This document shows positions 1 to 36,416 of a stretch of DNA of 36,416 bases, one piece after another. Every line of letters begins with the position of its first letter. Position 1 is the first letter of the stretch. Below the pieces are notes generated by a model. The model was not told the DNA's origin and did not search any database. It saw only the letters and a program-made list of their open reading frames with translations. Source of the stretch: a virus; UHGV virus genome UHGV-1512937. The stretch is one strand, 5' to 3'. The translations under genes and the position numbers were made by a program.

Positions 1-94
1 CCCCTCCAGAAATATGTGACTTATCCTTTACGCTGGCAGTATAACGGGAAAGGCCATGCTAATACGTGATGACATCACATTTAAGCATGGCAAA

Positions 95-30950: not shown

Positions 30951-31826
30951 ATGCGGTTATCAAGATCCTTATGTAAAGTAGTTGGCGATGTCATTGCTAA
31001 CTCAGGCTCTCATGCAGCTTTAGATACGTTATTTCTTACTTCGGGAGCACCAGGAAACCCTCCGGCAGGATCTCATAGTACAAAATGGAAAGACTGGTTA
31101 TTTCTTGCAGGGCAAGATCCAGATACAGATAGTCTGGCAGTTCTGGGCGGAGTAATTGAGGAGTTTATGGATTTACCTCCAAAAGAAGGTACTCCCGAAT
31201 ATGCAGAATGGAAGGAAAAACGAGACAGAATTGAAGCTGTGTTACAAGAGAATGGACTTAGATATTATCGTTTTGGTCGAGTGTTGCCTGAAGGCCACAT
31301 CCCGTCACACAATATGGATTACCCAGAGACCATAATTACTTATCAACAGCCAGTAATGCCAGAAAAAGTTGAGAACTTACTGGAAAGGCTGGTCAAAGGC
31401 TTACAGCGAGCAATGCATCCACTTACTCATAGGCGAAAAGGAAGCCAGTCATTATCTTTTAGCAATGAATATGACGTGCAAGACCTTCTCCATGCATTGC
31501 TCAGACCATGGGTTCAGGACATCCGCCCAGAAGAGTTTACTCCAAGTTACGCTGGTTCAAGTACTCGAATGGATTTTTTGTTACCTGCGCATAAATTAGT
31601 ACTGGAAACCAAAATTGTTCGTGATCGTTCTCATGCAAAGAAAATCGGCGATGAACTTATTATCGATATAGAGCATTATCGTCGGCACTCTGATTGCAAA
31701 AATCTCTGGTGTGTCATCTACGATCCGAACCAGCTTATTACTAATTCTGAGGGGCTGAAATCTGATCTTGAGGGGAAGAGAGTCTCTAAAGACGGAGAAC
31801 TTATCGTCAAGGTTTTCGTAATTTAA
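30951..31826 (+). CDS. AT-rich inserted gene; protein with C-terminal PD-(D/E)xK-like motif (putative nuclease, candidate defence/abortive-infection gene)
   Basis: 291 aa; much lower GC by eye than flanking baseplate genes; C-terminal EYDVQDLLHALL ... RMDFLLPAHKLVLETKIV matches the E ... D ... ExK layout of restriction-endonuclease-fold nucleases. Confidence 0.55.
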   Translation: MRLSRSLCKVVGDVIANSGSHAALDTLFLTSGAPGNPPAGSHSTKWKDWLFLAGQDPDTDSLAVLGGVIEEFMDLPPKEGTPEYAEWKEKRDRIEAVLQENGLRYYRFGRVLPEGHIPSHNMDYPETIITYQQPVMPEKVENLLERLVKGLQRAMHPLTHRRKGSQSLSFSNEYDVQDLLHALLRPWVQDIRPEEFTPSYAGSSTRMDFLLPAHKLVLETKIVRDRSHAKKIGDELIIDIEHYRRHSDCKNLWCVIYDPNQLITNSEGLKSDLEGKRVSKDGELIVKVFVI

Positions 31827-33912: not shown

Positions 33913-34866
33913 ATGGCAAATCTACCTGAAACCCCACAGTGGGAAGACGGCATCTACCAGATTGAGGTCTCTGACCCCGTTCTGGGCGGGCCTGACGGAA
34001 TTTCTAACCGTCAGGGTAAACAACTGGCCAGCCGCACGCTGTACCTGAAGCAACAGGTTGAAAAAGGCGGGGCTGACCTTGCGAAACACATCGCGGCAGC
34101 AGACCCGCATGCCCAGTATGCACCGAAAGCCAGTCCGGCATTCACCGGCACACCAACAGCACCTACACCTGCAAATGGCGATAACAGCAAAAAGCTGGCG
34201 ACGACGGAGTTTGTGGCCAAAGCACTTGCGGCGCTTGCAGGCAGCGCCCCTGAGACACTGGATACGCTTAAAGAGCTGGCTGACGCTCTCGGTAATGATC
34301 CAAACTTTGCGACTACGGTACTGAACAAGCTGGCGGAAAAGCTGGCTAAAGACCAGAACGGCGCAGATATTCCTGATCCTGCGCTGTTTGTCAAAAACCT
34401 TGGTTTGGGGGAAGGCTCTGCACTGCCCGTTGGTGTGCCCGTTCCGTGGCCCTCAGCAACACCGCCAACGGGCTGGCTGAAATGTAACGGCGCAGCATTT
34501 TCTTCTGAAATGTACCCCAGGCTGGCAAAGGCTTATCCGACCAATAAATTACCGGATTTACGGGGCGAATTTATCCGTGGCTGGGATGACGGACGAGGTA
34601 TTGATGCAGGACGAGAGATACTTTCATTTCAGGAAGGCACTATCGTCTCCGGTTTTGATGATAATGATACTGGGGATATCAGTTCACTCAGCTCAACACA
34701 ATACGGATTTGGTGACACTTTAACCTCTAATCAATGGGGGGCCATAAATGGCAAAAAGTGGATATTTGATGCATCCAGTAAAGGTGCCAAAAAATATGAC
34801 TGGTGGGCTTATGTATCAGCTCGTCCGCGTAATATTGCATTTAATTACATCGTAAGAGCGGCATAG
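33913..34866 (+). CDS. tail fibre protein with lambda Stf / P2 H-like C-terminal receptor-binding domain (cassette V1 fused to the constant part)
   Basis: 317 aa; TLDTLKELADALGNDPNFATT resembles the conserved fibre repeat of P2 H and lambda Stf; the C-terminal part (GEGSALPVGVPVPWPS ... LPDLRGEFIRGWDDGRG ... NIAFNYIVRAA) resembles the lambda Stf C-terminus and tail-collar domain. Confidence 0.85.
   Translation: MANLPETPQWEDGIYQIEVSDPVLGGPDGISNRQGKQLASRTLYLKQQVEKGGADLAKHIAAADPHAQYAPKASPAFTGTPTAPTPANGDNSKKLATTEFVAKALAALAGSAPETLDTLKELADALGNDPNFATTVLNKLAEKLAKDQNGADIPDPALFVKNLGLGEGSALPVGVPVPWPSATPPTGWLKCNGAAFSSEMYPRLAKAYPTNKLPDLRGEFIRGWDDGRGIDAGREILSFQEGTIVSGFDDNDTGDISSLSSTQYGFGDTLTSNQWGAINGKKWIFDASSKGAKKYDWWAYVSARPRNIAFNYIVRAA
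34388..34413. promoter_or_regulatory. Hin/Gin-family (serine invertase) crossover site inside the tail fibre ORF
   Basis: TTGTCAAAAACCTTGGTTTGGGGGAA matches the remembered hixL sequence (TTATCAAAAACCTTGGTTTTCAAGAA) at about 21 of 26 positions and Mu gixL similarly; it lies exactly where the fibre constant part meets the variable C-terminus. Confidence 0.6.
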
Positions 34867-34870
34867 AAAC

Positions 34871-35305
34871 GTTGGTTTGGGGGAAGGCTCTGCACTGCCC
34901 GTTGGTGTGCCTGTTCCGTGGCCCTCAGCCACACCGCCAACAGGCTGGCTGAAATGTAACGGTGCAGTATTTTCTGCTGGGAAGTACCCCAAACTGGCAC
35001 AGGCTTACCCCACCAATAAATTACCGGATTTACGGGGCGAATTTATTCGTGGCTGGGATGATGGACGTGGAGTGGACAATGGGCGAGCATTATTAAGCAG
35101 GCAGGAGGCTACAAATTTTTCTTATTACGGAGGTAATTTCGATATTGGGTCTGGTCATTCAATCAATAACTATGACCAAATCGTTGACAACCAACCTGGA
35201 TTCTCCCGTTTTTCATTTGCAGGTCCTTCGCGAGGCGATGGGGTTAATTTTGTGACCATTCGTCCTCGTAATATTGCGTTTAATTACATCGTAAGGGCAG
35301 CATGA
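34871..35305 (+). other. promoterless alternative tail-fibre C-terminal cassette V2
   Basis: Open frame beginning with the same ~200-bp conserved 5' module as V1 (GEGSALPVGVPVPWPS ... RGWDDGRG) and ending with the same conserved C-terminus (RPRNIAFNYIVRAA), with a divergent central region; no ATG start or RBS. Confidence 0.6.
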
Positions 35306-35309
35306 AAAC

Positions 35310-35792
35310 GTTGGTTTGGGGGAAGGCTCTGCGCTGCCCGTTGGTGTGCCCGTTCCGTGGCCCTCAGCAACACCACCAGCAGGGTGGCTGAAATGTAACG
35401 GCGCAGCATTTTCTTCTGAAATGTACCCCAGGCTGGCAAAGGCTTATCCGACCAATAAATTACCGGATTTACGGGGCGAATTTATCCGTGGCTGGGATGA
35501 CGGGCGAGGGATTGATGCAGGACGTGCTTTATTGAGCTTTCAAACTGGGATGCTGGAAAAACACCGCCATATTGTTGTAGCTAACGATGGGTATGACACA
35601 AAGGATGAATGGGAGTTGGCCACAATTTTCAAAAAAACATATTCACAAGGCCGGGGACTTGATGCTGCAAATACAGGAGGGAGTTTGATTCCATCACCAA
35701 CGCTTCATTCACGAGGAAGTATTGGTAACACTGGTGGTAGTGAAACTCGCCCCCGCAATATTGCATTTAACTATATCGTGAGGGCGGCTTAA
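35310..35792 (+). other. promoterless alternative tail-fibre C-terminal cassette V3
   Basis: Same architecture as V2: conserved 5' module nearly identical to V1, distinct central region, conserved end (RPRNIAFNYIVRAA). Confidence 0.6.
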
Positions 35793-35798
35793 TTATAC

Positions 35799-36416
35799 TC
35801 AACTGGCTGCTGCCAGAGGCATTTCCGGCCAGTTGATATCCGGTGCAGTGCTGATGTCAGTCGCATTAAGCGCATCTATGAAATCAAGCACGGCGTTTAG
35901 TTTTTCCGTCTCCTGGGGCGTCAATCGGCGTCCGGCTCGTAGTTTGAGATTAATAAGCTCAACAGATGCCATTGCCTGTTCCTCAAGTTGCTGACGATGC
36001 GCTCCGGCAGCTTCCAGTTCTGCTGCGTGCTGTCGTCTCGTATCTGTCACCCAGGTCTCACCATCCCAGACATCATAGATGGTAGCTGGCTGTTTCACCG
36101 TCGTATCTGAAGGGTAATCTCCCGGCTGTGTGATTTGCACAGCGTTACCATTCTCTGTGCTGTAAACCGTTTCGCCTCTGTGGTCTGGAACATATTTCCA
36201 GATGTTCTGGTCGGTATCACGACAGACAGCGAAGCCGGGGCGTTTTTCTGGTGGCGCGTCAATGCATGAGTGAGCCGGAATTCCAACACCATAAGCGAGA
36301 TATTCAACAGTGGCAGAGAGATATTCACGGTTTTCAGCATCGTAGTTATAAACGGTAATATCGCCTGCAGTTATAGCGATACCATTCTGATCAAGTACTG
36401 CAGCAGCATTATTCAT
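35799..36416 (-). CDS. tail fibre assembly protein (lambda Tfa / Mu U family), convergent with the fibre cassettes
   Basis: 205 aa; DHRGETVYSTENG and TDISTAPDINWPEMP resemble lambda Tfa (DHRGKTVY ..., VDTSTAPDIEWPAVP). The ATG coincides with the last three bases of the window, so the start cannot be confirmed from upstream sequence. Confidence 0.8.
   Translation of the reverse strand: MNNAAAVLDQNGIAITAGDITVYNYDAENREYLSATVEYLAYGVGIPAHSCIDAPPEKRPGFAVCRDTDQNIWKYVPDHRGETVYSTENGNAVQITQPGDYPSDTTVKQPATIYDVWDGETWVTDTRRQHAAELEAAGAHRQQLEEQAMASVELINLKLRAGRRLTPQETEKLNAVLDFIDALNATDISTAPDINWPEMPLAAAS

Follow-up and report, generated by a model that had tools for sequence, protein, structure and literature searches.

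Tandem tail-fibre cassettes of a BcepMu-like prophage of Escherichia coli 8178 as probable parts of a Min-type multiple-inversion system

The multiple-inversion system Min of the plasmid prophage p15B, reportedly described by Sandmeier, Iida, and Arber between 1990 and 1992, offers a natural point of comparison for the tail-fibre locus of E. coli 8178 considered here. In both loci a Din-family serine invertase lies beside the invertible segment, several 26-bp sites share one conserved half (TTCCCCCAAACC) and an AA/TT core, and a constant 5' fibre part is accompanied by many 3' tail-collar cassettes ending in ..RPRNIAFNYIVRAA. The 8178 locus departs from p15B, a P1-type plasmid, in residing on a BcepMu-like transposable prophage, in its 163-aa constant part, in the hix-like left half (TTGTCAAAAACC) of the site at the end of that part, and in having four sites, four cassettes, and 12 isomers, whereas p15B has six or more sites. 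The recombinases were compared through a proxy from the P1-like plasmid pSA186_4, whose invertase shares 95% identity with the one encoded at the 8178 locus; also found on pSA186_4 are an exact mixQ''R' site, eight cassettes in tandem on one strand, a single tfa, and a copy of V1, one of the cassettes described below.

Several other systems share parts of this layout. Four coexisting variants of the 'shufflon' in a P2-like prophage of EPEC E2348/69 have been demonstrated by sequencing and PCR (Goldberg et al. 2014, PMC4272514), and the homologous three-site locus that we compared in E2348/69 fits the locus of that report. Its V2-type and V3-type cassettes are homologous to those of 8178 (88% and 94% aa identity), but it differs from the 8178 locus in its three sites, three C-termini, and four variants, its P2-like backbone, and its 531-aa fibre protein. 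The classical two-state segments (G of Mu and D108, C of P1, P of e14, and Phi1, Phi2, and Phi4 of EC958) belong to the same recombinase family (70-74% identity to Gin) and follow the same logic, with the site at the same position in the fibre gene and the C-terminus swapped; they are built from two sites and two cassettes, with one tfa for each cassette, whereas the 8178 locus has four sites, four cassettes, and one tfa, and thus two extra internal sites and three cassettes lacking tfa. Between the same outer sites, sister lysogens with an identical constant part and invertase carry a segment of just this two-state kind. Lastly, the R64 shufflon (Rci, pilV) and the bifidophage Rin locus resemble the 8178 locus in undergoing multiple inversions at asymmetric sites by which one C-terminal cassette is chosen, but they employ a tyrosine recombinase on unrelated sites (in R64, Rci on sfx) where the 8178 locus has a serine enzyme, so the likeness is one of logic only; R64, in addition, varies a pilus adhesin and not a phage fibre.

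The DNA analysed here (the window, 36,416 nt, UHGV virus genome UHGV-1512937) is 100% identical to E. coli 8178 by sequence comparison (NZ_CP151934.1), its carrier being a BcepMu-like transposable prophage of that strain; a search of the phage collection returned no close full-length match. The window closes at 36416 inside the system; immediately past its end in NZ_CP151934.1 come a fourth cassette (V4), an inverted crossover site (site D), and the gene for the invertase. The constant 5' part of the tail-fibre gene, Sc (33913..34401, plus strand, within the ORF 33913-34866), runs to the crossover core; its first 163 aa recur, at an identity of at least 95-99%, in many proteins with different C-terminal cassettes, and residues 137-167 align with the Mu tail fibre S immediately before the Mu crossover point. 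Sc is fused in the window to cassette V1 (34400..34866, plus), a 155-codon tail-collar tip counted from the core (Pfam Collar, PF07484, E 4e-14), which in other isomers is silent and in either orientation. V2 (34872..35305, plus; Collar domain E 3e-15) and V3 (35311..35792, plus; E 5e-15) are silent in the window, and V4 occupies L001 9517-10025 on the minus strand of the source record (NZ_CP151934.1). A sequence-only reading of the window had taken V1, V2, and V3 for three tandem, same-strand 3' cassettes of a tail-fibre gene, each opening with a near-identical ~200-bp module and ending alike around divergent centres; alignment and repeat search both agree, and each cassette begins with a crossover site followed by that module. 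Repeat search recovered a three-copy direct repeat family of 278 nt at 34349, 34821, and 35260 (75-86% identity) and, at the cassette 3' ends, a three-copy 46-nt family at 34820, 35259, and 35746 (83-87% identity). Measured against V1 over the first 197 nt past the core, V3 has 6 differing positions, V4 has 9, and V2 has 17. The tail fibre assembly gene tfa (35799..36416, minus, 205 aa; Pfam Caudo_TAP, E 2e-26; phrog_105) lies downstream of V4, whose stop it overlaps beyond the window end. V4 is the only cassette to have a tfa, and both in the window arrangement and in all Sc-V3 isomers this gene runs antisense to the fibre gene; V3, tfa, and V4 form one invertible unit, with V3 always convergent with tfa-V4 in the loci compared.

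The motif AAAC[C/G]TTGGTTTGGGGGAA occurs four times in the locus against 0.00 copies expected by chance, and marks four 26-bp sites with a TT core and the right half GGTTTGGGGGAA. Sites A (34388..34413, TTGTCAAAAACC TT GGTTTGGGGGAA), B (34860..34885, GGCATAGAAACG TT GGTTTGGGGGAA), and C (35299..35324, AGCATGAAAACG TT GGTTTGGGGGAA) are on the plus strand and site D (L001 10012-10037 of NZ_CP151934.1, AAGACGAAAACG TT GGTTTGGGGGAA) on the minus strand, the internal sites reversing their orientation after inversion. [quoted passage not shown] Against the p15B mix sites listed in Table 3 of PMC3241671, the four match at about 23-25 of 26 positions: the reverse complement of site B (TTCCCCCAAACC AA CGTTTCTATGCC) at 24-25 and site C at 23-24 against the internal mix sites, and site D at 25 against mixMl''L', while the reverse complement of site A (TTCCCCCAAACC AA GGTTTTTGACAA) fits the Din consensus and has the mix left half in common. 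The E2348/69 prophage has a site identical to site C. The V1/V2 and V2/V3 junctions had been read from the window as retaining the right half of the site beside a degenerate left half; the first part holds, but the left half ..GAAAACG recurs in site D, the functional outer site beside the invertase, and in published p15B mix sites; it is typical of the site family and does not point to decay. In EC958 Phi2, a site ending in ..AAACG TT GGTTTGGGGGAA inverts, as established by PacBio sequencing (PMC4134206).

The invertase gene (L001 10092-10664, plus) starts 67 bp from site D in the source record and encodes a Gin-like serine recombinase of 190 aa with PF00239 (Resolvase, E 4e-51) and PF02796 (HTH_7) domains, whose residues 1-183 match the Gin crystal chains 3UJ3 and 4M6F at E about 1e-90. 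Identity to D108 gin is 74% by tblastn and 70% by global alignment, and that to the invertase of E2348/69 is 94%. In Din-family systems the recombinational enhancer is a Fis-bound element of ~65 bp within the 5'-terminal part of the invertase gene, and ~100 bp separate it from the nearest site. Here two G-N13-C 15-mers (a motif-level match) span +46 to +60 and +94 to +108 of the gene; their centres are separated by 48 bp and stand ~120 bp away from that of site D, and the same positions are occupied in D108 gin, which suggests a candidate Fis enhancer. Likewise, basic residues of helix B that are peculiar to enhancer-dependent invertases, K47/R48/K51 in Hin (PMC3798978), have K46/K47/R50 as their counterparts here, in ..PGLKKLLRTL...

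A four-site inversion model of this locus predicts 12 isomers that obey a simple grammar, namely cassettes in plus orientation followed by the V3/V4 unit and, after it, cassettes in minus orientation. We surveyed 31 loci with identical cassettes, 27 of which also have the invertase gene on the same contig. These 27 loci comprise eight complete isomers and two reduced forms lacking one or two cassettes; a ninth arrangement was seen in part at one contig-end locus, and no arrangement outside the model grammar was found among the 31. Five of the complete isomers occupy a single yehQ insertion site and thus occur within one lysogen lineage. Thirteen of the 14 possible junctions between left context and cassette were seen, among them Sc (site A) joined to V1, V2, and V3, the V1 end (site B) to V2, V3, and V4, and the V2-end context (site C) to V1, V3, and V4. 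Inversion between the sites does take place, with reciprocal junctions at them, a result drawn from the comparison of genomes and not from reads of one culture, and the relatives make it probable that the locus still switches in strain 8178. The earlier suggestion of a multi-segment inversion system resembling Min of p15B, as opposed to a two-state G segment, is borne out by the mix-like sites, by the inverted site and Din-family invertase, by eight to nine of the 12 isomers, and by four fusions. We consider V1-V3 to be three of four alternative 3' cassettes in a Min-type multiple-inversion system together with V4, with a probability of about 0.93.

In such a system the sites would delimit three invertible units (V1, V2, and V3-tfa'-V4'), and the invertase would recombine any two oppositely oriented sites, each event inverting the intervening DNA and exchanging whatever follows the core. 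Successive inversions would generate the 12 isomers, each joining Sc in its reading frame to one of V1, V2, V3, and V4, while the unfused cassettes, having neither promoter nor start codon, would stay silent. The fused cassette alone would supply the receptor-binding tip (a tail-collar domain), such that a population of lysogens could release phage with up to four specificities, the four tips presumably differing in receptor.

Four other accounts of this locus were each rejected or demoted: non-functional tandem duplication, inversion driven by RecA, switching by deletion, and translation of the cassettes on their own. RecA-dependent homologous recombination between the ~200-bp modules, which form inverted repeats when V4 is counted, would leave the invertase uninvolved, and the 91-97% identity of the modules across ~197 nt speaks for it. 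The full 5'-module haplotype is nevertheless kept in 105 of 112 cassette copies, in which all diagnostic bases from +23 on follow the cassette body, thus placing the crossover within the first 22 nt; the base directly 5' of the core (C or G) travels with the left context. Exchange is, in other words, confined in each independent event to ~22 nt of a ~200-nt homology, a stretch that coincides with the 26-bp Din site, and it is these sites that have been mapped by experiment as mix sites. The seven other copies contain short gene-conversion tracts from another cassette (e.g., V1 with V4-type bases from +26 to +74), which indicates that homologous recombination also acts on the repeats; as the source of the inversions themselves it is very improbable.

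Slightly less credible still is a frozen array left behind by duplication or cassette capture, with V2 and V3 as relics that are never used. The three deposited assemblies of 8178 do have the same arrangement at the cassette locus and are identical here, and the V1 body is identical to that of a cassette in the P1-like plasmid pSA186_4, with only the 5' modules differing, a pattern that points towards horizontal acquisition. Against this stand the same cassettes in eight to nine arrangements, five of them in one lysogen lineage, and exact fusion proteins in public assemblies, with Sc-V2 on 224 contigs and Sc-V3 on 28 (Sc-V1 on 20 and Sc-V4 on 10). The Sc-V4 sequence was built in silico prior to the protein look-up, and this fusion is known only by exact protein match, as a chimeric Sc-V4 DNA query matched none of the collection's complete E. 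coli genomes in one piece. V2 and V3 are accordingly joined to the constant part in many genomes, contrary to a fixed arrangement, and the silent cassettes have remained intact, their dN/dS of 0.04-0.21 (0.21 for V2 against its E2348/69 homologue, 0.04-0.08 for V3) marking purifying selection. Successive cassette capture, which the sequence-only reading had offered as another possibility, may describe the origin of the array, given the identical V1 body in pSA186_4, but it fails as an alternative to active shuffling.

No better placed is the proposal that switching proceeds mainly by deletion between the direct sites A, B, and C, joining Sc irreversibly to V2 or V3. Three loci lack cassettes, in lengths that run exactly from one site to another: L032, which shares its yehQ site with 8178, reads Sc-V3 tfa' V4' hin, with a shortfall of 911 bp that corresponds to V1 and V2 together, and in L026 and L027, where V2 is missing, the shortfall is 439 bp. 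Deletion from Sc to V3 thus does occur, as a rare and irreversible side reaction, but of the 27 loci extending as far as the invertase gene, 24 keep all four cassettes, and the Sc-V2 and Sc-V3 loci examined mostly retain V1 and V2 inverted, a product of inversion only. Invertases of this class are, moreover, built to favour inversion (PMC3798978, PMC11850598), and Fis together with the candidate enhancer in the invertase gene would impose inversion over deletion here.

The silence of unfused cassettes in the Min-type reading has also been considered from the side of expression. V2 and V3 had been described as lacking a start codon and as in frame with the junction sequence, and this proved correct: neither has an ATG, the earliest possible start is a TTG within the site, and their frame relative to the core TT equals that at the Sc/V1 junction (AAC CTT GGT TTG versus AAC GTT GGT TTG), the frame being kept at all sites. 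A promoter-like scan of the region gave one site against 5.7 expected, and a scan for promoters and terminators gave nothing above chance in the cassettes, a result that lends weak backing to their predicted silence. That V2 and V3 are separate small genes read from the PGAP-annotated TTG starts, as their RefSeq CDSs of 142 aa and 158 aa ('phage tail protein') propose, is the least probable account of all, since there is no ATG, no Shine-Dalgarno sequence upstream of either TTG, a TTG that belongs to the crossover site, and a frame conserved relative to the site and not to a start codon, and the authors of the EC958 study regard such calls as an artefact of auto-annotation (PMC4134206).

A further, unlikely proposal goes beyond shuffling within the locus: the sites might also be portable cassette boundaries, with single tips moving in integron-like fashion between elements as unrelated as P1-like plasmids, P2-like prophages, and Mu-like prophages by invertase acting in trans, and V1-V3 might fold without a cis-encoded Tfa chaperone. 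Hints of portability are the V1 body shared with pSA186_4 and the cassette losses that are exact from site to site. As for folding, the hints are that only one tfa is present and that it flips with V4; E2348/69 and pSA186_4 likewise carry a single tfa.

In summary, the locus is a clear but ordinary natural example of a known mechanism, for which population data fit the 12-state model almost completely, and the understanding of how such systems work is unchanged; what it adds is a well-documented Min-type tail-fibre system on a transposable-phage backbone. Its recognition is of use in annotation, where silent cassettes are routinely mis-called as separate genes, and helps in interpreting structural variation among otherwise identical E. 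coli genomes and in choosing locked fibre variants for host-range work.

Three units lie head-to-tail at window 34399-35792, where a repeat search of the cassette region returned a direct repeat family of 278 nt in three copies (75-86% identity) and a 46-nt repeat, also in three copies, shared by the unit ends. In a MAFFT alignment, the units (cassettes V1-V3) share a near-identical block of ~200 nt and a conserved 3' end and diverge in the centre; together with the repeat search, this confirms the three same-strand cassettes with conserved 5' and 3' modules proposed by the sequence-only reading. Each unit starts with AAAC[C/G] TT GGTTTGGGGGAA, a 19-mer present in four copies in the locus versus 0.00 expected by chance. 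V1 is the 3' portion of a 317-codon ORF (33913-34866) that begins with the constant part of the tail-fibre gene (Sc); V2 and V3 have no ATG, their first possible start being a TTG within the repeated motif, and their frame relative to that motif is the frame at the Sc/V1 junction, as had likewise been claimed. A Phage Tail Collar domain occurs in V1, V2, V3, and a fourth cassette, V4. Motifs of the form His-x-His, similar to those that bind metal in T4 fibre tips, are found in V3 (..EKHRHIVV.., window 35316-35792) and V4 (..MDHTHYME.., 9517-10025 of L001, the NZ_CP151934.1 region around the window end) and are absent from V1 and V2, which divides the tips into two structural subtypes. In RefSeq/PGAP the silent cassettes (34877-35305 and 35316-35792) are listed as genes of their own, named 'phage tail protein' and begun at the crossover-site TTG, or, in other isomers, as pseudogenes 'missing N-terminus'; these calls are an annotation artefact, of a kind also noted by the authors of the EC958 study (PMC4134206).

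The window matches the chromosome of the Zurich mouse isolate E. coli 8178 at 100% identity. In that strain's record, the window's last gene, the tail fibre assembly gene tfa (window 35799-36416, minus strand), is followed by V4 (L001 9517-10025, minus strand), by a fourth motif copy in inverted orientation (site D), and, 67 bp past site D, by a recombinase gene of 190 aa. The recombinase has resolvase catalytic and HTH_7 domains, matches Gin crystal chains at E about 1e-90, and shares 74% (tblastn) or 70% (global alignment) identity with D108 gin; its identity to the invertases of a P1-like plasmid and of the P2-like prophage in E2348/69 is 94-95%. The helix-B basic residues typical of enhancer-dependent invertases are found in it, and two Fis-like 15-mers at +46 and +94 of the gene, spaced 48 bp apart and placed as they are in D108 gin, are suggestive of an enhancer there.

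In the orientation used in the literature, the four crossover sites read TTCCCCCAAACC AA GGTTTTTGACAA (site A), TTCCCCCAAACC AA CGTTTCTATGCC (B), TTCCCCCAAACC AA CGTTTTCATGCT (C), and TTCCCCCAAACC AA CGTTTTCGTCTT (D); in p15B, site mixMl''L' is TTCCCCCAAACC AA CGTTTTAGTCTT and the three internal sites are TTCCCC[T/C]AAACC AA CGTTTTTATG[CC/TG] (PMC3241671 Table 3). Site D thus has a mapped Min site that it differs from at 1 position, and site B one at 1 or 2. The left half that had been taken for degenerate is really the normal variable half of mix sites, made by the cassette's own 3' end (..GCGGCATAG). Site D has the same ..GAAAACG half as the internal sites and bounds classical two-state segments in sister lysogens; a ..TAAACG TT GGTTTGGGGGAA site inverts in PacBio reads of EC958 prophage Phi2 (PMC4134206).

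V1 and V2 each have a right half-site at the 5' end and a left half-site at the 3' end, and the V3-tfa'-V4' unit (primes marking minus-strand copies) has right half-sites at both ends; in the proposed mechanism, only oppositely oriented sites would recombine. The order would then run from Sc through any plus-oriented V1/V2, the V3/V4 unit in either orientation, and the remaining V1/V2 inverted, to the invertase gene; of the 48 orders and orientations that can be conceived, a breadth-first search allows exactly 12. Loci that share this Sc were gathered from complete E. coli genomes and, through exact protein look-ups, public assemblies, and the count rests on 31 loci whose cassettes are 100% identical to the probes. 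These comprise eight complete isomers, part of a ninth cut off by the end of its contig, and two reduced forms with one or two cassettes missing, and no arrangement among the 31 breaks the model's grammar. The window arrangement, Sc-V1 V2 V3 tfa' V4', is one of the observed isomers, and the three assemblies of 8178 agree on it. As five complete isomers occupy a single yehQ insertion site and the phage transposes randomly, they go back to one ancestral lysogen. Sites, serine invertase, and isomers thus agree on Min-like multi-segment inversion rather than a two-state G segment, and the main line of the sequence-only reading is correct.

All four cassettes appear to be used. Exact-sequence look-up of the four predicted Sc-V fusion proteins in public assemblies matched 20 (Sc-V1), 224 (Sc-V2), 28 (Sc-V3), and 10 (Sc-V4) contigs; as Sc-V4 was absent from every fetched locus, its match was a true prediction. 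In a protein search, the same Sc (at least 95% identity) also preceded many other collar cassettes, in proteins from E. coli, Salmonella, Klebsiella, Enterobacter, Citrobacter, and Serratia. The prospect that V2 and V3 are never joined to the constant region is at odds with these counts, and that of their decay with silent cassettes that are intact in well-assembled genomes and differ from their E2348/69 and pSA186_4 homologues by 29-56 synonymous and 9-25 non-synonymous changes (dN/dS 0.04-0.21).

General recombination between the repeats does not account for the shuffling. Diagnostic differences among the V1-V4 5' modules begin at +23 after the core, and left contexts are distinguished by the base adjoining it; in 105 of 112 cassette copies the haplotype is throughout the one that goes with the cassette body, and left contexts and cassettes occur in 13 of their 14 possible pairings. 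Every exchange therefore fell within about 22 nt of a ~200-nt homology, which indicates a site-specific enzyme. The other seven copies are alleles with short tracts taken from another cassette, which look like gene conversion also acting on the repeats; these 5' modules of V1, V2, and V3 (L010, L011, L018, L019, and L029) include a V1 with V4-type bases from +26 to +74, and one tract-bearing V1 allele is common to several lysogens. The sequence-only reading had raised deletions that would join Sc to V2 or V3, and at three loci the DNA missing corresponds exactly to the distance between two sites: L032, inserted in yehQ like 8178, reads Sc-V3 tfa' V4' and has lost 911 bp (V1 and V2 together), and L026 and L027 lack V2 (439 bp), all with junctions clean at crossover sites. 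Deletion between direct sites thus happens; it is rare and irreversible, and enhancer-dependent invertases are built in favour of inversion (PMC3798978).

Only V4 precedes tfa, with a TAATG stop/start overlap, and tfa inverts together with V4, lying antisense to the fibre gene in the window and in all isomers with Sc-V3. E2348/69 and pSA186_4 likewise combine several cassettes with only one tfa; either V1-V3 fold without the tfa product or they use Tfa supplied otherwise.

The carrier, which takes up the whole window, is a BcepMu-type Mu-like transposable prophage (Mor, GemA, Gam, MuB-like ATPase, and DDE transposase) with a P2-like tail module, inserted in yehQ with ends near window 73-77 and L001 10738-10742. 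These early genes lie at the left on the minus strand, an apparent 5-bp repeat (CATCA) flanks both junctions, and other lysogens carry the prophage in aqpZ, pduP, ppiD, rcsC, gsk, agaD, and elsewhere. A 291-aa gene (30951-31826, plus strand) that lies between baseplate genes V and W was present in all lysogens examined and is a possible defence moron. Its C-terminal half is a restriction-endonuclease domain of the DpnII/MboI type (Pfam PF18742, E 4e-47), PADLOC gives a match to the REase portion of Argonaute-associated 'Helical-REase' proteins (E 2e-30), and the N-terminal 140 aa had no match.

The locus is not a classical G segment and, its recombinase being a serine enzyme, not an R64-type shufflon; it works like Min of p15B and belongs there by its sites and enzyme. 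The P1-like plasmid pSA186_4 has an exact mixQ''R' site, one tfa, a 95% identical invertase, and eight tandem same-strand cassettes, such an array being therefore the usual look of these loci; one cassette has the V1 body with zero differences. The plasmid stretch (L016 5037-5510) differs from window 34400-34866 at 6 positions, all in the 5' module, and the standalone V1 protein is RefSeq WP_001703195 in both the 8178 prophage and pSA186_4. Individual cassettes appear to pass from one phage to another, unrelated one. A further counterpart, in the P2-like prophage of EPEC E2348/69, shares site C exactly, has cassettes of the V2 and V3 types with one tfa, and agrees with the locus of three sites and four variants that Goldberg et al. 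demonstrated experimentally (PMC4272514). In sister lysogens (E. coli 503025, ATCC 43896, WS3294A, and TW14425; L005, L006, L007, and L012), Sc and invertase are identical to those of the present phage, while the same outer sites enclose an ordinary two-state segment that has two tfa genes and unrelated cassettes, so that the invertible segment has been exchanged in its entirety, as one module; ATCC 43896 and WS3294A form a pair of flip isomers. The mechanism is already known, from 1990 on, and a close homologue of the locus has already been shown to shuffle.
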